DNA of 64,000 bases from Minisyncoccia bacterium (GTDB lineage Bacteria > Patescibacteriota > Minisyncoccia > SW-4-49-11), in assembly GCA_044356325.1 (NCBI GenBank), contig JBIKWJ010000001.1, forward strand, positions 56,305 to 120,304. The letters run 5' to 3'. Below are positions 1 to 62,392 of this stretch, piece by piece. The notes under the pieces are model-generated. The model searched no databases. It was given only the letters and a program-made list of their open reading frames with translations, and had not been told where the DNA came from. Position 1 is the first letter of the stretch, and every line of letters begins with the position of its first letter. Made by a program: the position numbers and the translations under genes.

Positions 1-1128
1 ACGGTCATCCTCCATTGAGTCACCCAATTCACTACGTCGCCTTTCATACGGGGTATGATCAGCAATGTAGATCCCGTCTGCTCGATTCGGCTTAACTCGA
101 ATCACAAAACGATCTCGACATGATCCCCGATGGCCGGGAACTTCGAGCGAATCAATCGCTGTATCAGGAGACACATCTCCAATACCGCACCAGAGGAAGC
201 CCTCATATGCGATCTCAGGAACACTCCCATCATTGGGGGTATCAAGTGATATAAGTCGATAACCACTTCCTGATAGAGCGTAACGATTCGCTGCATCCAG
301 CGCATTCATATTCTTCTGCCCTTGTTTGATTCGAACCACATCGCTATTTTCAGCGAAGCAGAAAATCGAACCAATTGAATCAGGAAAAGGAATTATTGCT
401 GGTATAGCGAATGTACCCACTTTTTCCTCGGGGATTGGGTGGGACACAATAATCTTGAACACAACTTCTTCAAGATAGTGCTTGAACTCTTCCATCACCG
501 TAGCGGTGCGGAAGAGTGTGGGCTCATCTCCCTCGGGATCGTACTCGCGATTGAGGTCGTTCGTATGAACCAGAAGCGGCGGCCGACGACCCGAATGAAT
601 ATGAGTCATCTGGGACAACTTTTCGGAGTCGTCAGTAAGAGCGGCGGTCAAAAAACCGATCGCTTCAAACCATGCCCCTGCCGTTGTTTGGCAGTCACAG
701 CCACCCTTGTACTCGAGGTACAACTTCGGCTCACCGCTGAGTTTACTGTTGACCTTCGAAGCGTTCATAAAGAGATCGCGGTCCCGCTCATAGTCGTCAC
801 CGACATAGAGATAGAAGGTTGGGCCTGACTCGTCATCATGGACGAGAATCATCTTCTGTGGAATCACGATTTCGGTTACAGCAGCTGTGTCATTCCAATG
901 ACCATCTGGCATAGTACGCTGTACGCGGCAAAACCAGAGTTTGAAATCCTGACCCTCAATCCGTGAAACTTTACGAAACTTTTGTTCTCCACTCCCATAT
1001 TCATGAAATTCCACAGTGACACCGGGAACTTGCCAATGGCGTTTCTCAAGCTCGCGAACAATTTGCTCGCAAACAGAATCAAATGGGAATTGAAGAGTAT
1101 TGGGATAAAGAAATTGCATCGTTTGCAT
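1..1128 (-). CDS. Hypothetical protein, 5' part only (runs off the window start). GC content about 52% against about 30% for the rest of the window, so probably foreign DNA.
   Basis: I translated the minus strand by hand from the ATG at 1126-1128 (MQTMQFLYPNTLQFPFDSVCEQIVRELEKRHWQ...) and found more than 370 codons with no stop, continuing past position 1. The ORF track omits it only because there is no stop inside the window. The plus-strand ORF 439..828 is antisense to it. No family recognised. Confidence 0.5.
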   Translation of the reverse strand, partial: MQTMQFLYPNTLQFPFDSVCEQIVRELEKRHWQVPGVTVEFHEYGSGEQKFRKVSRIEGQDFKLWFCRVQRTMPDGHWNDTAAVTEIVIPQKMILVHDDESGPTFYLYVGDDYERDRDLFMNASKVNSKLSGEPKLYLEYKGGCDCQTTAGAWFEAIGFLTAALTDDSEKLSQMTHIHSGRRPPLLVHTNDLNREYDPEGDEPTLFRTATVMEEFKHYLEEVVFKIIVSHPIPEEKVGTFAIPAIIPFPDSIGSIFCFAENSDVVRIKQGQKNMNALDAANRYALSGSGYRLISLDTPNDGSVPEIAYEGFLWCGIGDVSPDTAIDSLEVPGHRGSCRDRFVIRVKPNRADGIYIADHTPYERRRSELGDSMEDDR

Positions 1129-1200
1129 GGGACTGCTCCTTTGTAATTGGTTTTGTGAAGGTGTAATCCTCAGGCAAAATAGCCTAAAGAATGCAGTACT

Positions 1201-1229: not shown

Positions 1230-1253
1230 TAGCTATTATCAAGTATTACTAAT

Positions 1254-1296
1254 TGCGGAGAGAAAGGGATTAGAACTCGTCGCAAATGGGATTTGC
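1254..1296 (-). repeat. Partial duplicate of the tRNA-Ser 3' end (about 25 nt) fused to the hairpin gcaaatgggatttgc. Looks like an att-site remnant.
   Basis: Plus-strand tgcggagagaaagggattagaactc is close to the 3' end of the intact tRNA-Ser at 1521-1545 (tgcggagagagagagatttgaactc). It is followed by gtc and then the perfect inverted repeat gcaaat-ggg-atttgc. Confidence 0.5.
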
Positions 1297-1520
1297 TCCT
1301 TGAAACCACCTCAGTTTCCTCAATACCCCTACAACCCCATCTCGGACACCCACGGTTTCCGACATTCGGAGCAAGCACCTCACTGCCTTCCTCTCTAGGG
1401 GTATTGATTACATCCTCCACGGGAAACTACCGTTTCCCGACCCCTTCCCTGACTTCAAATCTCTCCCAACTGCTACACATAATATAAAAAATTGGGGATA
1501 TACCCCATTTTCTATATTTG

Positions 1521-2394: not shown

Positions 2395-4224
2395 ATGAGT
2401 GAAAAATTATCTCTAGATACCAAAAGACATACCGGTGCACATATTTTAGCAGCTGCAGTATATGAAATGTTCCCAGAAGCTCAATTTGGAGTAGGTCCTA
2501 CTACTGAGAATGGATTTTATTATGATATTCTCCTTCCTCGCACTCTTATCCCAGAGGATTTGCCTTTGCTTGAGGATAAGATGAAAGCTATTATTAAGGC
2601 AAATTTACCCGTTGAGAGAGAAGAAATGGCTATTGATGATGCTATTGATCATTTCCGACAGGCAGGGCAATTATTGAAGGGTGAATTATTACAAGATCTC
2701 AAAACTCATGGGACTACCAATTTCTCTGAAATATATGGAGAAGGTGAAGCTGTCCCTCACGAGAATGAAGTGGCGACAGTAAGTGTATATAAAATTGGGA
2801 ACTTTGTAGATTTATGTCGTGGCCCTCACATTGAGACTACGGGTCAATTAGATATTACGGCTTTTAGTCTAGATAGTATATCTGCTTCCTATTTCCGTGG
2901 AGATCAAAGTCGTGAGAGTATGCAGAGAATTTATGGAATATTATTCCATTCCAAAAAGGATTTAAAAGAATTTTTGCATAATAGAGAAGAAGCCAAAAAG
3001 CGAGATCATCGTGTATTAGGGAAAAGTTTAGGTTTATTTACTTTCTCAGAACTCGTAGGTTCAGGGCTTCCTCTTTATACTCCTGCTGGAACAACTCTCA
3101 AAAATAATATTGCAGGATTATTACGGCAAATTAGTAAAAAATATGGCGCTGAAGAAGTTTCTATTCCTCATATTGCTAAAAGAGAGCTTTATGAAATTAG
3201 TGGTCATGCTCAAAAGTTTTCAGAAGAACTCTTAACGGTACATAGTCATTATCAGCAAGATTTTGTATTAAAACCCGTAAATTGTCCTCATCATACACAA
3301 CTATTTGCTTCTGAGCCTCGTAGTTATCGCGATTTGCCTATTCGGTATATTGAATCCACTATGCAATATCGAGATGAAAAGCCAGGACAAATTGGAGGAC
3401 TTACTCGTACTCGAGGATTTACCGTAGATGATGGACATACTTTCTTAGCTGTCAGCCAGATTAAAGATGAGGTGAATTTACTTATCAAAACTATTTCAGA
3501 CTTCTATAACAGTTTTGGATTATGGGAGAATAAATGGGTTTCTCTTTCAGTAAGAGATTATAGTGATTTATCTAAATATACTGGAGTACCTGAGGATTGG
3601 GATAAGGCTGAGGAAATGCTAGAGTCTATTGCTGAGGAAAATGGTCTACAAGCCCAAAAATGCGAAGGAGAGGCTGCTATTTATGGACCAAAGCTCGATT
3701 TTATGTTCTATGATGCTCTTGGCAATGAGAGACAACTTGCGACAATACAATTAGACTTTGCAACTCCTAAACGATTTGAACTCGAATATATTGATGAGGA
3801 AGGAAATGCACAAACTCCGGTGATGATACATAGAGCTATTCTTGGTTCTTATGAACGATTCCTTGCTATTCTGATTGAGCATTATGCTGGGCGATTTCCG
3901 TATTGGCTAGCTCCAACTCAAGTGTCGGTATTAACCGTAAATGATTCAGATGAAGTCTCTGAATATACCAAGAATATTATTGAACAATTAGATGAAGTGG
4001 TATTATCTTCCCCTCTTAAATATAATGAGCTACGGTATATTGTAGATAATAGCTCTGAATCTCTTGGCAAAAAAATTCGTAATGCAGAATTACAAAAAAT
4101 CCCTGTGATTATTATTGTCGGTCCAAAAGATATAGAGGCGAGTCAAGTAAGTGTCCGCACTCATAGCGGTGAGAGCAAAATTGCTTTGTCTGAATTACAA
4201 AAATTCCTAGAAAATTTTGAATAA
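2395..4224 (+). CDS. thrS: Threonyl-tRNA synthetase.
   Basis: 609 aa. Contains the class II ThrRS motifs HRVLGKSLGLF and FELEYIDEEGN...PVMIHRAILGSYERF, plus a C-terminal anticodon-binding region. Confidence 0.9.
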   Translation: MSEKLSLDTKRHTGAHILAAAVYEMFPEAQFGVGPTTENGFYYDILLPRTLIPEDLPLLEDKMKAIIKANLPVEREEMAIDDAIDHFRQAGQLLKGELLQDLKTHGTTNFSEIYGEGEAVPHENEVATVSVYKIGNFVDLCRGPHIETTGQLDITAFSLDSISASYFRGDQSRESMQRIYGILFHSKKDLKEFLHNREEAKKRDHRVLGKSLGLFTFSELVGSGLPLYTPAGTTLKNNIAGLLRQISKKYGAEEVSIPHIAKRELYEISGHAQKFSEELLTVHSHYQQDFVLKPVNCPHHTQLFASEPRSYRDLPIRYIESTMQYRDEKPGQIGGLTRTRGFTVDDGHTFLAVSQIKDEVNLLIKTISDFYNSFGLWENKWVSLSVRDYSDLSKYTGVPEDWDKAEEMLESIAEENGLQAQKCEGEAAIYGPKLDFMFYDALGNERQLATIQLDFATPKRFELEYIDEEGNAQTPVMIHRAILGSYERFLAILIEHYAGRFPYWLAPTQVSVLTVNDSDEVSEYTKNIIEQLDEVVLSSPLKYNELRYIVDNSSESLGKKIRNAELQKIPVIIIVGPKDIEASQVSVRTHSGESKIALSELQKFLENFE

Positions 4225-14040: not shown

Positions 14041-14460
14041 TGAATAAGGTGAGAAAAATCCTAGGTAAACTAGGAGTTATGTAGGGGCGACCTTGTAGTC
14101 GCCTGCACTATTATGTCCTCCTTTCTACATACGGTAGACAAGTGGAGGGGGTGGCCGTCAGGCCAGAGGTGGACTAAGCTAAATTCCCCTCTTGAGGGGT
14201 ACCGTCGTTAGATGGTGGGGTGGAATATTTTTGTAACTTGAGTTTGTGCCCCCCTTCGCCTGCCTGCGGTAGGCAGGGAGGGGGAAGCCTGAAAGACGGG
14301 GGTGGATAGAATCAAAACTAAAGTATATTTGATAATCATATTGAATTTGAGAATATAGGTTTTTAATTATCCACACCCACCGCAAGCGGTTCCCCCTCTC
14401 CAAAGAGGGACATAAGACAGGCAACTGAAAGGTCACCCCTACGAAATGCATAATTTACAA
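14041..14460. repeat. GC-rich interspersed repeat, copy A (composite and degenerate MITE-like element).
   Basis: GC-rich insert in AT-rich DNA. It shares modules with the other copies: gtaggggcgacctt, ggtggccgtcaggccagaggtgga, cctgcctgcggtaggcaggga, ttcccctcttgaggggtaccgtcg and aaggtcacccctac. A hairpin ccccgtaatttacgggg plus T-run follows at 14476-14505. Confidence 0.6.
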
Positions 14461-14503
14461 TTGCCAACTACACCCCACCCCGTAATTTACGGGGTGTTTT
14501 TCT

Positions 14504-18675: not shown

Positions 18676-18806
18676 GCTCAGTCCACACCCGTCACTTCGT
18701 GCCACCCTCGCCAGCGAGGCCTGCCTGCGGTAGGCAGGGACAGTTATTTATGTCCTCCCTTGGGGGAGGTGTCCCTCCCATATTAATATGGGAGGGACGG
18801 AGGAGA
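18676..18806. repeat. GC-rich interspersed repeat, fragment B (inverted relative to copy D).
   Basis: gctcagtccacaccc...cgccagcgagg...cctgcctgcggtaggcagggacag...gggagggacggaggag is the reverse complement of the internal part of copy D (52650-52800). Confidence 0.55.
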
Positions 18807-40922: not shown

Positions 40923-42065
40923 TTACAAAGTTGTCTTTTGTAACAAATCAATAAGCCTAGTATTAAGCTCTTTGCCAGCTGTATGTATATCCTTGTCTGA
41001 GGCATAACTATATACCAAGACTCCTTCATCATATTCACCATCCAAATCTGAAAGAAAATGAGCCATATCAAGTTTAGGGAAATCTAGATACCCTTGTTTG
41101 GTACTATTCCCATTATCAAGGAGAATATGAAGTCCCAAATTATCACTCGGTAAATAAGATAGTATTGTTCGGTATATCAGAGGTATATCCTTAGCCTTAG
41201 TATGAGTTTTAGAAAAATCATGGGGAAAAAGCTTAGAATACGCGTAGCGATGTTTTACTCCCTGAATAGTGATTTCCATCCACTCTAAATGAGCTAGAAT
41301 ACGGCCAATAAGTAATCTCTGACTATCTGTAATAAGACTATTAAGAGCATTATCAATAGCGGTATAATTAGCTCCTAATTCTCTCATCTCAATAATTGCT
41401 TTATCTACTGCTAATGTACGAGATGATAATAATAAAGAGAATAACAGGGCATTACAAATATTTTCATTCCAAGCATTGGGATAATACGTTTTAATATAGT
41501 CAATAATAATCTCAGCATTAGAATTATAGGCTGAATTATATATTGTTTTTTCAGAATAAGGATGCTTTATATCAAAAGCTGATATAGCAAGAGAAGGTGT
41601 ATCAATCAATATATGGGGATAATCTGTAAAATATTGCCCTAATTGAGTCCAGTTTTGTGTATCTAATGTTACTACCAAATCATAAGAATATTTGCCAGGA
41701 GTAATAGTAACTAATTCTGATTGGAATTTTTCTGAAGGTGAATTGAGATAAATTCTAATCTCAGAATCCGTTCTATCATATTTGAGAGATTCAATAGGAT
41801 ATTTGGTAGTATCAATAGAAATTACTGACTCTACAGAACCTTGTAATATTGAGGTTATCATACTAGTATCAATCATAGTCAATACTTGCTGTATATGAGT
41901 ATATGAGGATATAATACTCACTTGTTTTCCCTCAGATTGTAATAAAGAAGCTAAGGCTAGGGCTGAGCCCAATATATGTATTCCATGAATTTCTGGAATC
42001 GGAATTACAATTGACTGAGCATTTTGTAATGTCTCATGCATTAATGTCAAATCTGATACAGCCAT
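40923..42065 (-). CDS. DHH-phosphoesterase-superfamily-like protein (degenerate, probably non-catalytic).
   Basis: 380 aa. The N-terminal ...GIHILGSALALASLLQSEGKQVSII... resembles the NrnA/DHH motif I region, but the canonical DHH and GGGH motifs are not evident. Confidence 0.3.
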   Translation of the reverse strand: MAVSDLTLMHETLQNAQSIVIPIPEIHGIHILGSALALASLLQSEGKQVSIISSYTHIQQVLTMIDTSMITSILQGSVESVISIDTTKYPIESLKYDRTDSEIRIYLNSPSEKFQSELVTITPGKYSYDLVVTLDTQNWTQLGQYFTDYPHILIDTPSLAISAFDIKHPYSEKTIYNSAYNSNAEIIIDYIKTYYPNAWNENICNALLFSLLLSSRTLAVDKAIIEMRELGANYTAIDNALNSLITDSQRLLIGRILAHLEWMEITIQGVKHRYAYSKLFPHDFSKTHTKAKDIPLIYRTILSYLPSDNLGLHILLDNGNSTKQGYLDFPKLDMAHFLSDLDGEYDEGVLVYSYASDKDIHTAGKELNTRLIDLLQKTTL

Positions 42066-42123
42066 ATAATATCCCTATATAAAGACTTATTATACCAAAA
42101 TACTTATATATAGTCAAAAATAT

Positions 42124-42417
42124 TTGTGAGATGGGGAGATAGTAGACCAAACAGATTACTATACATTGCTAGCCTAAGGACCCTAGCTTGTCACAAAAAT
42201 TGTCCTCCTTTGCCTGCCTGCGGTAGGCAGGGAGGAGGTGGCCGTCAGGCCGGAGGTGGATAGAGTTCAAGTTTGTATATTATCCACCCCCGCCTTTCAG
42301 ACTCCCCCCTCCAAAGGGGGATAAAAGTAATAATTCTTTTGTTACGACAACATATGCTACCTTAAGGTCGCCCCTACACAAATCTCATTTTGTCTATGAT
42401 GTATCTCATCTTATTCA
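42124..42417. repeat. GC-rich MITE-like element, copy C.
   Basis: Nearly identical to copy E at 57708-58003. The right TIR is ...gtaggggcgacctt...tgtctatgatgtatctcatcttattca and the left TIR is tttgtgagatggggagatagtagacc. The core contains ttgcctgcctgcggtaggcagggaggaggtggccgtcaggccggaggtgga. Confidence 0.7.
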
Positions 42418-52466: not shown

Positions 52467-52597
52467 TATATTGTATATGATATTGAGTATTATGTAAACC
52501 TATATATTTTATACTATGGGAAACACTATATTTTGTTCTTATTTATATTATAATTAAAGTTCTAATATATTGATTTTATGATGAAACAGAGTTTGAA

Positions 52598-53009
52598 TAA
52601 GATGAGATACATCGTAGACAAAATGAGATTTGTGTAGGGGTGACCTTACAGTCGCCCGCAAGTCCTCCTCCGTCCCCTCCTATACTTTAGTTTGGGAGGG
52701 GACACCTCCCCCAAGGGAGGACAATAAAACTGTCCCTCGCTGGGCGAGGGTGTCGACGAAGTCGACGGGTGTGGACTGAGCTAATTCCCCTCATTGAGGG
52801 GTGTATCATTAAAAGGCCTATATTCTAAAATATAAATTTATTTTGAACCTATCCACCCTCCCCCTACGGGTACTCCCTCCTAAGGGAGACAAAAGCTCAA
52901 GCTCAAATATATCACAGGCGACTGATAGGGTGCCCCTACATAAGAACAATAGTGGAGGGATAAACCCTCCGCTACGAAAGTATAATTTGTCTACGATCTC
53001 CTCATCTTA
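52598..53009. repeat. GC-rich MITE-like element, copy D (the best-preserved copy, with roughly 27 bp TIRs).
   Basis: Left end tgaataagatgagatacatcgtagacaaaatgagatttgtgtaggggtgacctt. The right end, reverse-complemented, is tgtataagatgaggagatcgtagacaaattatac. The element is about 55% GC in a roughly 30% GC genome. Confidence 0.7.
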
Positions 53010-53086
53010 TACAGAGTTTTGACAAATAAAAAAAGCCCCACACGAATGCAGGGTTCAAAGAGCTTTAGCTGTGAATAGCAGGCAGC

Positions 53087-57651: not shown

Positions 57652-57707
57652 AGATTACGATACTTATATACTATTATTATAGTATATTTTTAGAGTTTTG
57701 TATAGAT

Positions 57708-58003
57708 CTGTATGAGATGAGGAGATGGTAGACACAACAGATTACTATACATTACTAGCCTAGGGTCCCTAGCTTGTCACAAAAATTGTCCTCCTTTGCC
57801 TGCCTGCGGTAGGCAGGGAGGAGGTGGCCGTCAGGCCGAAGGTGGATAGAGTTCAAGTCTTTATCTTATCCACCCCTGCCTTTCAGGCTTCCCCCTCCTA
57901 AGGGGGACAAAAGTAATAATTCTTTTGTTACGACAATATATGCAACTGTAAGGTCACCCCTACACAAATCTAATCTTGTCTACGATGTATCTCATCTTAT
58001 TCA
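57708..58003. repeat. GC-rich MITE-like element, copy E.
   Basis: Left TIR ctgtatgagatgaggagatggtagaca. The right end ...tgtctacgatgtatctcatcttattca is the reverse complement of the copy D left TIR. The internal sequence is almost identical to copy C. It begins 4 nt after the stop of the 58007 gene and ends 57 nt upstream of the ruvB start. Confidence 0.7.
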
Positions 58004-58006
58004 TAT

Positions 58007-58834
58007 CTATTCTTTTAATTGTATCTCGTATATTTGTGGCCAGAGTTTACCAGTTATGAATACGGTATTGGTACTGGCTTTATAGGCGATACCATTTAAC
58101 TGAGCTATATTGGGGTCTTTCTCTCGTATTTGTGAGACGATATCGGACAAATCTAACACCCCTATTATTTCACCATTATCAGGATTAATTTTGACAATTT
58201 GATTAGTCTGACAAATATTGGCGTAGATAAATCCTTTGATATACTCAAGCTCATTGAGAGAATACTGAGCTATATCTCCTCTTTTTACTTCGAGAGTTTT
58301 CACTACTTGGAAATTCTCGGGGCTTAAATAGGTCAATTTATTAGTCCCATCGCTCATAATGAGATTAATCCCATCATTCGTCAATCCCCAACCTTCAGCA
58401 CTGGAGTAAGTAAAAGTATTGATCTCTTTAAATGTCTTCGTATCATAGACAAATCCTTTTTGATTCTTATAGGTGAGCTGATATATTTTATTATTGAGTA
58501 TAGTACTTCCCTCTCCAAAATAGATGTTACGGTCAAGTTCAGCTTTGATATCGATATTACCTGTCTGTAAATCTAATGGACCTAATACGGATTGCGTTTG
58601 AGGCAAATAATCTGGAGAGCCAGTACTTTCATACAGAGTGTCTCCATCAAAAAATAATCCCTGAGTATATGAGTTAATATTATGAGAATATTGCTTAATT
58701 ATAGTATAAGATAATGTCTTTCTTGTAGGTATTTGATACTCTAAATATCCTCTATAGCTAATAATACCCCAAAGTGTACAAATAAAAAATATAGCAAGAA
58801 GAATAGCTATTCTTTTGCGATACCAATATGTCAT
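58007..58834 (-). CDS. Glutaminyl-peptide cyclotransferase (plant/bacterial-type beta-propeller QC), membrane-anchored.
   Basis: 275 aa with ...YTQGLFFDGDTLYESTG... and ...FGEGSTILNNKIYQLTYKNQKGFVYD... motifs of the Glu_cyclase_2 family. Confidence 0.6.
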   Translation of the reverse strand: MTYWYRKRIAILLAIFFICTLWGIISYRGYLEYQIPTRKTLSYTIIKQYSHNINSYTQGLFFDGDTLYESTGSPDYLPQTQSVLGPLDLQTGNIDIKAELDRNIYFGEGSTILNNKIYQLTYKNQKGFVYDTKTFKEINTFTYSSAEGWGLTNDGINLIMSDGTNKLTYLSPENFQVVKTLEVKRGDIAQYSLNELEYIKGFIYANICQTNQIVKINPDNGEIIGVLDLSDIVSQIREKDPNIAQLNGIAYKASTNTVFITGKLWPQIYEIQLKE

Positions 58835-59387: not shown

Positions 59388-59404
59388 ATAATTTGTTATT
59401 AGTT

Positions 59405-59732
59405 GGCTTTATCATTCTCTAAATGCTTTGTTCGAATGCAGGGACTCGGTCACAAGTAATTTACCTGACGGTAAATTCTCGCTACCCCGTCTCGCCGTGT
59501 TCGCCTTGCGCATAGCACAAACTCACACATGGCTCCGACTTTCTCGCCCTGACTAAAGCCAATAAATTGGCTTTATCATTCTCTCGCTTCGCTGTTCGAA
59601 TGCAGGGACTCGGTCACAAGTAATTTACCTGACGGTAAATTCTCGCTACCCCGTCTCGCCGTGTTCGCCTTGCGCATAGCACAAACTCACACATGGCTCC
59701 GACTTTCTCGCCCTGACTAAAGCCAATAAATT
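59405..59732 (-). repeat. Two tandem copies of a 164 bp unit. Each unit contains an 18 nt duplicate of the tRNA-Gln 3' end plus a 9 bp-stem hairpin.
   Basis: Unit 1 (59405-59568) and unit 2 (59569-59732) are identical except for the 10 nt aaatgctttg versus cgcttcgctg. Each contains ttcgaatgcagggactcg, which is the tRNA-Gln 3' end. A third partial unit merges into the real tRNA. Confidence 0.7.
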
Positions 59733-59758
59733 GGCTTTATCATTCTCTCGCTTCGCTG

Positions 59759-59829
59759 TTCGAATGCAGGGACTCGAACCCCAATTGCTGGTGCCAGAAA
59801 CCAGTGTCCTACCGTTAGACGACATTCGA
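59759..59829 (-). tRNA. tRNA-Gln (anticodon CTG).
   Basis: Reverse complement is TCGAATGTCGTCTAACGGTAGGACACTGGTTTCTGGCACCAGCAATTGGGGTTCGAGTCCCTGCATTCGAA. It has the U1:A72 pair typical of tRNA-Gln, and the anticodon loop is TTCTGGC. Confidence 0.75.
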
Positions 59830-61405: not shown

Positions 61406-61461
61406 ATCATATTCTTAAAATATACGAGAATAGTATAGCATAGTTCTATTTAAAATTCACC

Positions 61462-61540
61462 TTCTCCCTATGGGTTACCTACCGCAGGCAGGTCGATAAA
61501 TTGAGTGGTGAACTGTGTAGTAGGATGAGGTGGAAAAACT
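61462..61540. repeat. Short fragment F of the GC-rich repeat family.
   Basis: Contains cctaccgcaggcagg, the reverse complement of the shared cctgcctgcggtagg core, embedded in GC-rich sequence. Confidence 0.35.
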
Positions 61541-62038
61541 TTATCTCACCAAACTCTCTATATAATTCTCTCTATTTTGTATGGACAAAATAACCTGCCC
61601 AACTACTCCGTCCATTGCTTTTTTGATTGCTATATCCTCAAAATGCACTATTTCTAAATGTAAACTTTTCAGGAAATTTTCTCTTATTAGATCATATTCC
61701 CCTTTATCATTATGACTATCTCCATCTATTTCGAATACTAAACCTAATTCAGGGATCAAAAAGTCTACAATATAATTTCCTATTATAACTTGTCTATCTA
61801 TATCATAGCCTAATAGTTTTTTGTCCTTAAACGCAAGCCAAAATAATACTTCTGACAATACACCTGCTTGCCTTAATTCTTTTGCTTTAGTTTTAAGTCT
61901 GGGATTCTTTGGTAATTTAGAGTAATTATATTTCCACCCCGTCTTTGTTTCACAAAGCCACCCCTCAAGAGGGGAATTTTTTAATTTCATAATTTTATTA
62001 TATCTCAAATAAAGTATATCATAAGTTTTATTATACAT
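61541..62038 (-). CDS. DUF559 (Vsr-like endonuclease fold) domain protein.
   Basis: 165 aa. ...LRQAGVLSEVLFWLAFKDKKLLGYDIDRQVIIGNYIVDFLIPELGLVFEIDGDSHNDKGEYDLIRENFLKSLHLEIVHFEDIAI... matches the DUF559 pattern. Confidence 0.6.
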   Translation of the reverse strand: MYNKTYDILYLRYNKIMKLKNSPLEGWLCETKTGWKYNYSKLPKNPRLKTKAKELRQAGVLSEVLFWLAFKDKKLLGYDIDRQVIIGNYIVDFLIPELGLVFEIDGDSHNDKGEYDLIRENFLKSLHLEIVHFEDIAIKKAMDGVVGQVILSIQNRENYIESLVR

Positions 62039-62059: not shown

Positions 62060-62325
62060 GTGGAATTTTGGTCTTGCAACATTCCCCTCTTGAGGGGTAC
62101 CGTCGGTAGACGGTGGGGTGGAGTATTTTGCAACTTGAATTTCTGTCTCCCTTCCTGCCTACCGCAGGCAGGTGGAGGGAGTACCCGCAAGGGGGAGGGT
62201 GGATAAAGTTTAATCTACAAATCTTATGTAAGAATTTTAATCTAATTATATTGTGCTAGCAATCCACCTCCGGCACGTTGTGCCACCTCCTCCCTGCCTA
62301 CCGCAGGCAGGCAAAGGAGGACAAA
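62060..62325. repeat. GC-rich interspersed repeat, copy G (rearranged, no TIRs).
   Basis: Carries the ttcccctcttgaggggtaccgtcg...ggtggggtggagtatttt module shared with copy A. It has two copies of cctgcctaccgcaggcagg. Its terminal section is the reverse complement of the copy C/E core (ttgtcctcctttgcctgcctgcggtaggcagggaggaggtgg). Confidence 0.55.
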
Positions 62326-62392
62326 ATAAGTATCATTAAAATATCTCCCTTTTGAAAGAATGGCCAGAGGGGGATTTTTTAGCCCCATAATT

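Follow-up and report, generated by a model that had tools for sequence, protein, structure and literature searches.

Short MITE-type elements and nested palindromic units in the intergenic DNA of a Minisyncoccia genome

The closest described counterparts of the repeats reported here are miniature inverted-repeat transposable elements (MITEs) such as Correia/NEMIS of Neisseria, RUP of Streptococcus and Nezha of cyanobacteria, which are short and non-coding, have terminal inverted repeats of ~26-28 bp and target-site duplications, occur in many intergenic copies, are mobilized in trans and can bring structure or promoters to genes. The termini 5'-TG...CA-3' and a 5-bp duplication are common to Mu, Tn7, Tn402 and the IS2 group, and targeted, oriented insertion is known for Tn7 at attTn7 and for Tn402 at res sites. 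Nesting of small palindromes is also known: the small dispersed repeats (SDR) of Nostoc punctiforme were reportedly described by Elhai et al. in 2008 as 21-27-nt mobile units whose insertion at particular positions in MITE-like hairpins gives nested repeats, and the GC clusters of yeast mitochondria and the double-hairpin elements of fungal mitochondria are small GC-rich palindromes that spread in AT-rich intergenic DNA and insert into one another. Repetitive extragenic palindromic (REP) sequences, including the doublets called REPINs and bacterial interspersed mosaic elements (BIMEs), which are associated with REP-associated tyrosine transposases (RAYTs), are GC-rich GTAG palindromes of 20-40 nt found as inverted doublets; they form clusters by insertion into or beside existing repeats and lie after genes, between co-directional open reading frames (ORFs) (PMC3116915, PMC3733652). 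In the stretch of DNA analysed here (64,000 nt of contig JBIKWJ010000001.1, positions 56,305 to 120,304, assembly GCA_044356325.1, from a Minisyncoccia bacterium of the Patescibacteriota; hereafter the window), MITE and REP-like nesting are combined in a set of GC-rich intergenic islands, denoted A to G with an eighth near the start of the window. A non-autonomous MITE-type transposon is represented by islands A, C, D and E, A being decayed, and the GC-rich content shared by the islands consists of smaller palindromic units rather than of the transposon frame itself.

The mobility of element D was demonstrated directly by comparing a filled with an empty site. The mreB protein beside D is encoded identically on a strain contig from another sample (L154; loci outside the window are given L numbers), on which mreB is separated from the upstream ORF by ~440 nt less than in the window. 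The empty site reads TTTGTCAAAACTCTGTTTC, in longer reading ...GGGGCTTTTTTTATTTGTCAAAACTCTGTTTCATCATAAAATC..., with AACTC present once. The filled site in the window reads TTTGTCAAAACTC[420 nt]AACTCTGTTTC, that is, AACTC-[420 nt]-AACTC, the minus strand being ...TTTGTCAAAACTC[TGTATAAGATGAG...420 nt...CTCATCTTATTCA]AACTCTGTTTCATC.... Since taking out D together with one AACTC gave a colinear alignment with L154 across the junction, the insertion was deduced to be precise and accompanied by a 5-bp target-site duplication.

The frame of the element was defined from 14 further loci, obtained by scanning metagenomes with one end and read in register with the window copies; the copy statistics rest on 13 full copies from several genomes. 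The frame starts at the t2 end with TGAATAAGATGAGATACATCGTAGACAA and finishes at the t1 end with ...TTGTCGACGATTACCTCATCTCATACA, which as an inverted repeat reads TGTATGAGATGAGGnnATCGTnGACAA. The terminal inverted repeats are imperfect, 27-28 bp long, with tips of the form 5'-TG...CA-3' (TGAAT.../TGTAT...). In the window and at the 14 metagenome loci the similarity ends sharply at these tips and the flanks are unrelated. Element length ranges from 52 to 505 nt, mostly ~230-500 nt, with no coding capacity in any copy, and the interior from 4 nt in the 52-nt mini element of L012 to ~450 nt in L013. The 5-bp duplication was found exact in 4 of the 13 full copies (D, L013, L017 and L022) and with four of five positions matching in L005 and L009 (permutation p ~5e-4), and it varies in sequence (GAGTT, TATTT, TATAT, TCAAC).

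The choice of target proved particularly regular. Beyond the t1 tip, positions +6 to +13 correspond to TTGACAAA, with T in 12 of 13 copies at +6 and +7, G in 10 at +8, and A in 10-11 at +11 to +13; no conserved positions were found outside the t2 tip of the same copies. For 10 of the 13, a -10 box lies 16-18 nt after the motif, with a co-directional gene or tRNA beyond it, and TTGACAAA is the -35 box of that downstream promoter. At D it forms no promoter and overlaps a T-run behind the upstream gene, and recognition was therefore deduced to depend on sequence. As the motif is already present in the empty site of L154, it is part of the target and not of the element, and on this ground the idea of a mobile promoter, in which TTGACA would be owned by the element, was rejected. 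The constant spacing of 5 nt between the t1 tip and TTGACAAA, always in one orientation, points to insertion that is targeted and oriented; the pattern itself is plain in the copies, and targeting would be its cause. Because the inner portion of the terminal repeats (TAGACAAA/TCGACAAA) is similar to TTGACAAA, the transposase may recognize this motif as a surrogate end. A precedent is provided by IS911, which inserts beside sequences resembling its own ends. Solo ends were found in L010, L014, L015 and L016 and at position 4186 of the strain contig L145, and in every one TAGACA occupies exactly the -35 box position, 17 nt ahead of a -10 box. They are most simply read as products of a deletion that joined TAGACAAA of the end to TTGACAAA of the target.

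The second layer was resolved by comparing the island interiors. The GTAGGGGYGACC module has the layout of the GTAG superfamily of REP sequences, namely, GTAG with a GGCGAC/GTCGCC stem in inverted doublets, and in A and D such palindromes (GTAGGGGYGACC-loop-GTCGCC) lie immediately inward of the ends, paired in inverted orientation, while L016 has a doublet of them. A large imperfect palindrome, GTCYCCC-TTAG-GGGRGAC...GGAGGGTGGAT-loop-ATCCACCTCC...CCTCCAAAGGAGGAC, has CCTCC/GGAGG arms that are capped by small hairpins, and these (GTCGACGAAGTCGAC, GGCACGGAGTGCC and ACCGCGTTAGCGGT) vary by copy at equal positions. The remaining module is a 19-nt hairpin, termed hp19. Modules other than hp19 are confined to relatives of this genome, and the only named genomes found to share the repeat family were "Candidatus Parcubacteria" (L114) and one metagenome-assembled genome (MAG; L022, L054, L095 and L098), which suggests a Patescibacteria/CPR (candidate phyla radiation) host. 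Members of the family are present in the assemblies Ga0453946, Ga0492768, Ga0214923, Ga0247832, CALMJI01 and JBEAQD01.

The hp19 hairpin behaves as a discrete insertion, seen as exact 19-nt differences between filled and empty sites. Island B holds exactly CCTGCCTACCGCAGGCAGG between GTC and CCTCGC, where D, L004, L010, L014, L098, L114 and L095 are uninterrupted (alignment A1). In G and L114 the hairpin is found at CCTCCTC^CAAAGGAGG (also written CCTCCTC^CAAAGGAGGAC), a position that is empty in L005, L007, L009, L013 and L017, and in L095 it is found at CTCCCC^CAAGGGAGG, where D and B are empty. None of the hp19 insertions compared had a duplication.

Among the matches listed, hp19 was found exact in more than 120 genome stretches from about nine phyla. 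The scan covered one genome per species (596 Gb); the counts are lower bounds, and the number of matches to a 19-mer expected by chance was estimated here as a handful. Isolate hosts among the matches listed were Algoriphagus, Pedobacter, Daejeonella, Sphingobacterium, Galbibacter and Mangrovibacterium; further hosts among them were about a dozen Patescibacteria lineages, Thermodesulfobacteriota, Acidobacteriota, Omnitrophota, Planctomycetota, WOR-3, Thermodesulfovibrionia and Proteobacteria. Viral contigs gave seven matches, compared to 0 and 0 for two shuffled, composition-matched controls. The flanks of hp19 are unrelated from locus to locus and pair with each other in 25 of 133 cases versus 2.3% in controls, from which it was deduced that the hairpin there sits in the loop of a host hairpin. 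A direct repeat of at least 7 nt was present in the flanks in 14 cases (2.8 expected), and hp19 was depleted from long open frames, which contain 29% of the copies versus a baseline of 84%. The hp19 sequence was not found in the literature searched.

Proteins that might accompany hp19 were also sought. When 2,175 ORF segments from within 2.5 kb of the hairpin were clustered all against all, no protein family travelling with it emerged; an apparent cluster of eight loci was discarded, since the UvrA-like ATPase that is its largest member retrieved by BLASTP only a single further ORF, of weak similarity. Y1_Tnp (RAYT-like) ORFs or fragments lay 0.1-3 kb from hp19 in 5 of ~125 loci, and the RAYT of L031 has its own, different flanking palindromes; the connection to RAYTs was therefore taken only as a lead. 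In a Paludibacter MAG (L120, positions 1300-2100), a RAYT-like gene (1343-1936) lies between 17-nt inverted repeats, CTCCTGCTTTCCATATT, one of which hp19 abuts directly, with a GTAGGCTAGAGCCTAC hairpin beside the other. In L036, L029, L062, L044, L056 and L123, hp19 was located within or beside near-copies of itself, e.g., CCTGCCTGCG[hp19]GCAGGCAGG, and related variants such as CCTGCCTGCCGGCAGGCAGG are also present, which suggests a wider hairpin family based on CCTG/CAGG repeats.

The islands were located in a bacterial window of 33.7% GC with dense gene packing, nearly all genes being on the minus strand and including thrS, glyS, argS, dnaK, secDF, mreBC, PBP1A/PBP2 and ruvB together with six tRNAs (Table 1). 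Self-comparison of the window gave mutual alignment of all seven segments listed by the original prediction, and their motifs are far above shuffled expectation, so that these are real repeats, as had been claimed, with shared internal palindromic modules. The window has six exact copies and one degenerate copy of hp19 (0 expected from shuffles), four matches to the end motif (0.13 expected) and five to GTAGGGGYGACC (0.09 expected), and the islands, with 1,942 nt or 3% of the window, contain 37 of its 86 GC-rich perfect hairpins. C and E align gap-free over 291-298 nt with an identity of 91-92%, rather than ~95% as had been stated. D is inverted relative to both and has a 62-nt end (95%) and a 28-nt end (93%) in common with them, and its interior differs. 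The ends of A are ~80% like those of other copies, and several modules are held in common; B aligns to the interior of D, inverted, at 76%; G is 80% similar to A and 92% over 63 nt to C/E; F contains nothing beyond one degenerate hairpin.

Set against these data, the proposal of seven copies of one element had to be revised: B, F and G are made only of small units, without terminal repeats, and are therefore not MITE copies but mosaics of modules, and the eighth island, at 1250-1480, had been overlooked. The predicted terminal inverted repeats of ~27 bp in C, D and E were borne out and are found decayed in A as well. A GC content of 55-60% was too high an estimate, whole elements having 45-50% (B, 60%; F, 42%). 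The islands are non-coding, as foreseen, the longest open frame in any of them being 91 codons and not conserved. Recent mobility had been read from the similarity of C and E, which at 92% does not show it; it is the empty site of D, with the 5-bp duplication, that proves it for this element.

Table 1. Coordinates of the islands, their ends and targets, and the palindromic units in the window
Feature	Position	Strand	Description
Eighth island	1250..1480	-	GC-rich, non-coding, directly 3' of tRNA-Ser
Element A, old decayed MITE	14041..14466	+	t2-like end 14041-14067, 3 mismatches; degenerate t1-like end ~14446-14466; interior of hairpin modules
hp19, 19-nt hairpin CCTGCCTGCGGTAGGCAGG	14259..14277	+	exact copy
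hp19, further exact copies	18720-18738 (+), 42213-42231 (+), 57799-57817 (+), 62154-62172 (-), 62293-62311 (-)		
Island B	18676..18806	-	no terminal repeats; homologous to D interior frame; extra 19-nt hairpin insertion
Promoter-like site TTGACT-17-TATAAT, TG before it	42089..42117	-	5 nt after C t1 tip; serves gene 40923-42065
Element C, MITE	42123..42417	-	92% identical to E; t2 tip 42417; t1 tip 42123 degenerate (TTTGTGAG for TGTATGAG)
D target-site duplication GAGTT, left copy	52589..52593	+	single in L154 empty site
Element D, complete 420-nt MITE	52594..53013	+	t2 TGAATAAGATGAGATACATCGTAGACAA at 52594; t1 ...CGATCTCCTCATCTTATACA at 53013; missing at L154 orthologous site
GTAG-tagged REP-like palindrome GTAGGGGTGACC-TTACA-GTCGCC	52634..52656	+	inverted partner 52915-52939
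Units similar to the GTAG palindrome	14081-14103; 14421-14442 (-); 42356-42377 (-); 57942-57963 (-)		
D target-site duplication GAGTT, right copy	53014..53018	+	
Target motif TTGACAAA at D	53019..53026	+	5 nt past t1 tip; also in empty site
Promoter-like site of ruvB (TATACA-17-TATAAT)	57676..57704	-	directly after E t1 tip
Element E, 295-nt MITE	57709..58003	-	t2 tip 58003, 3 nt past stop codon of 58007-58834; t1 tip 57709
Island F	61440..61540	unassigned	remnant; degenerate 19-nt hairpin at 61474-61492
Island G	62060..62330	unassigned	no terminal repeats; large imperfect palindrome GTCTCCC..GGAGGGTGGAT-loop-ATCCACCTCC..GGAGGAC; two hp19 copies

The eighth island shares modules with the MITE interiors of L013, L017, L009 and L007. 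It adjoins tRNA-Ser (1520-1609), starts with the reverse complement of the tRNA-Ser T-arm (GAGAGATTTGAA), contains a segment of ~77 nt (GGAAGGCAGTGAGG...GTCGGAAACCGTGGGTGTCCGAGA...GGGGTTGTAGGGG) that is 85-90% conserved in L022, L013 and L014, and terminates in a copy of the tRNA-Ser 3' end that matches at 22 of 25 positions. In L022, L014 and L114, too, tRNA genes are followed by islands of this sort, and the eighth island could be an integration scar or a tRNA-linked element. Between F and G lies a DUF559 gene on the minus strand (61541-62038; PF04480, with a Vsr-like endonuclease fold), for which gene callers differ on the start (149 or 165 amino acids); the hairpin CCCCTCAAGAGGGG is present within its 5' end, with an inverted copy 69 nt upstream.

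The source of mobility was sought in the genes available. As the original prediction had it, no transposase was detected in the window (Pfam/NCBIfam), nor in ~30 kb of annotated flanking contig or among the ORFs beside the solo and full copies in L010, L014 and L015; a Y1_Tnp gene was likewise absent from the window and the 30 kb of annotated flanking contig, and a RAYT from ~95 kb of the genome. Scans of viral contigs with both element ends gave 0 matches, and BLASTN of D against plasmids and phages gave no similarity. The IS630/Tc1 and IS200/IS605 sources that had been suggested do not fit TG...CA ends with a 5-bp duplication: the IS630/Tc1 duplication is TA, and here it is 5 bp of variable sequence, while IS200/IS605 elements are without terminal inverted repeats or duplication, and D has both. 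An intact IS200-type element does occur in a related genome (L007, 3220-3790; Y1_Tnp E = 1.4e-39), with end hairpins CCCCGCCC-TTTTAA-GGGCGGGG that are unlike the island modules; it was rejected as their origin since the hairpins are unrelated. The TG...CA ends and 5-bp duplication would instead be consistent with a DDE enzyme of the retroviral-integrase type, as in Mu, Tn7, Tn402 and IS3/IS481.

From these data we consider it likely that the islands represent two layers of selfish DNA, a MITE frame and smaller palindromic units nested within it. The first layer would be a non-autonomous MITE moved, by cut or copy, by a DDE-type transposase encoded elsewhere, with staggered cuts of 5 bp giving rise to the duplication that was observed. 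Integration of the MITE would be oriented, the t1 tip lying at a distance of 5 bp from TTGACAAA, and since this motif mostly serves the following gene as its -35 box, copies come to sit between a stop codon and the next promoter. The second layer would comprise the REP/REPIN-like hairpins tagged with GTAG, the CCTCC/GGAGG arms and hp19, which would colonize MITE interiors and other intergenic sites, entering or adjoining existing hairpins to build nests; for hp19 this is seen in the exact 19-nt filled and empty differences. The leading guess for mobilization of this layer is a single-strand mechanism of the HUH/RAYT type. As a by-product, genes upstream of a nest would acquire very stable hairpins in their 3' untranslated regions. 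C and E start 10 and 3 nt, respectively, past an upstream stop codon, so that these islands must be transcribed as 3' untranslated regions. Effects on the RNA, such as 3'-end stabilization or termination, are likely a consequence of the elements rather than the reason for their existence.

A wider reading, which we put forward only tentatively, joins both layers: hp19 may be a mobile DNA unit, among the smallest known, that crosses phyla (Bacteroidota isolates and viral contigs included) and enters or adjoins hairpins as an exact 19-nt block without duplication, served in trans by HUH/RAYT-like enzymes, and the MITEs of the candidate phyla radiation (CPR) may be its landing pads, their own transposase homing on -35-like TTGACAAA boxes.

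Several points weigh against the two-layer interpretation. No transposase with matching ends was found in the window, the parts of the flanking contig or the 14 metagenome loci, and the putative DDE class has as its only basis the TG...CA ends together with the 5-bp duplication. Seven of the 13 copies have no recognizable duplication; these may be old or recombined. D is the sole polymorphic island; all strain contigs retrieved carry A, B, C, E, F and G in identical form, and these are therefore fixed. Selection could contribute, besides targeting, to the fixed position at -35 boxes, and the link of hp19 to Y1/RAYT transposases is weak, a lead only. Finally, the many small hairpins with loops of GNRA, UUCG or CUUG type, differing in sequence at the same position of the frame, would also be compatible with selection on RNA structure.

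That last point belongs to an alternative in which the islands are mainly functional structured RNAs, either related to Whalefall-1 or serving as stabilizer or terminator modules of 3' untranslated regions, with selection acting on the RNA and mobility being incidental. Whalefall-1 (RF01762) is an RNA motif recorded only from uncultured bacteria (PMC2864571), and the islands resemble it in hairpin layout: a CUCCC-UUGG-GGGAG hairpin, a second hairpin and then GGAGGAC. The matches scored 23.8 and 21.4 bits, below the gathering score of 37, and here the unit sits within a palindromic DNA repeat of larger size. Assignment to a structured RNA already described, which would have told against mobile repeats, was thus not obtained; at gathering score no Rfam family was assigned to an island in the window or in 12-14 related loci, and at permissive E-values D, the eighth island and the flanking region gave only tRNAs, rRNAs and sub-threshold Whalefall-1 overall. 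The folding energies are far below those of shuffled sequences (z = -10.3 for D and -4.7 for E), and the co-transcription of C and E with their upstream genes would also suit an RNA function. However, both strands fold about equally, with no consistent strand bias in 13 copies, and the strand comparison therefore cannot separate RNA from DNA function. Moreover, D is missing from an otherwise colinear sister strain, where it must be dispensable, and is flanked by a target duplication, module content is free to vary between copies, and the flanking genes differ among genomes. We therefore regard an origin as functional RNA as unlikely.

It was also considered whether everything, C, D and E included, could belong to a REP/BIME/REPIN system in which a RAYT-type tyrosine (HUH) transposase mobilizes hairpins in single-stranded form, with no DDE enzyme. 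The GTAG palindromes in inverted pairs inside the ends of A and D and the doublet in L016 agree with this, as do the Y1_Tnp ORFs close to hp19 in other phyla, the growth of clusters by insertion into existing repeats, as for REPINs (PMC3116915), and GGGGTGAC, which agrees with the GGGGWSAS motif of repeats flanking RAYT-like genes (PMC3733652). However, transposition of the HUH/IS200 type leaves the target unduplicated and does not depend on terminal inverted repeats, and D has such repeats as well as a duplication; a Y1_Tnp gene was not found in the window or the 30 kb of flanking contig, and the IS200 end hairpins of L007 are unrelated. It is quite improbable as an account of all the islands. 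An origin of the islands as decayed leftovers of GC-rich DNA gained by horizontal transfer, such as integrated elements or prophage scars, and not as a family spreading within the genome, would agree with their GC contrast to the host genome and with the tRNA-abutting islands at 1250-1480 and in L022, L014 and L114 that end in a tRNA 3' copy like integration scars, but is very improbable given the ends and modules common to islands and to unlinked sites in other genomes, the sharp boundaries with their 5-bp duplication, and the lack of similarity to plasmid or phage records.

Some further features of the window and its surroundings were recorded. Downstream of tRNA-Gln (59758-59829, minus strand), positions 59398-59776 contain a 164-nt unit repeated 2.3 times in tandem at 95% identity, with the final 20 nt of tRNA-Gln reproduced at the end of every unit; the number of units varies by strain contig, L145 having one fewer. 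These units resemble the 178-bp repeats after tyrT in E. coli. At the other end, positions 1-1130 (minus strand) are occupied by a gene running off the start, with 48-50% GC in a 34% GC genome; an ORF on the opposite strand (439-828) had no Pfam match, and the region looks horizontally acquired. Just past the end of the window, L145 carries at 3700-4160 a GC-rich stretch of ~400 nt with no ORF and no Rfam match, downstream of a strong promoter-like site (TTTACA-17-TATATA) abutting the solo t1 end; it is possibly a non-coding RNA. The 23S rRNA gene, at 5892-9184 of L145, is 3,293 nt long compared to a model of 2,925 positions and probably carries an insertion or intron, and the 5S rRNA gene is also just beyond the window. 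A JGI metagenome contig of 252,788 bp, on which the DnaK of the window is encoded identically, runs on into these 23S and 5S rRNA genes.

The significance of these repeats lies in several directions. With its empty and filled sites, D documents an active transposon in an apparently reduced Patescibacteria genome, where mobile DNA has been little described. If true, insertion held so strictly to one orientation and to a distance of 5 bp from TTGACAAA would provide a compact natural case of sequence-targeted, oriented DDE transposition at promoters; targeting beside promoters bears on the rewiring of expression by insertions and could inform targeting tools. The nests show stepwise colonization of hairpins by smaller hairpins and raise the questions of what moves hp19 and how phyla are crossed, and the identity of hp19 across about nine phyla is the part that lacks a current explanation. 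In practice, islands of this kind break assemblies and can pass for non-coding RNA genes.

With respect to the described systems, the elements share with Correia/NEMIS, RUP and Nezha the short non-coding design and dispersal outlined above, and differ in a duplication of 5 bp rather than TA, in TG...CA ends, in an orientation fixed 5 bp from TTGACAAA, in interiors that are mosaics of secondary hairpin insertions, and in a host from the Patescibacteria/CPR, a group for which the literature searched held no paper combining MITEs with CPR. The TG...CA termini with a short, fixed duplication are those of Mu/Tn7/IS3-like DDE ends; compared with Mu, Tn7 and Tn402, no transposase or target-selector gene was seen, each end has a single short repeat rather than the binding-site arrays of Tn7, and the target lies 5 bp off. 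The second layer resembles REP/REPIN/BIME sequences in size, GTAG layout, clustering and location after genes. Unlike REP/RAYT systems, it came with no RAYT here, the MITE frame makes a duplication that RAYT/IS200 chemistry does not, hp19 has its GTAG inside the loop and 3' arm instead of 5' of the stem, and hp19 is identical across phyla, REP families being normally specific to a species or genus. The mitochondrial GC clusters and double-hairpin elements are organellar, unrelated in sequence and without a frame of terminal repeats. The SDR of N. punctiforme, similar in their manner of nesting, are also unrelated in sequence, and hp19, at 19 nt, is not limited to one lineage.

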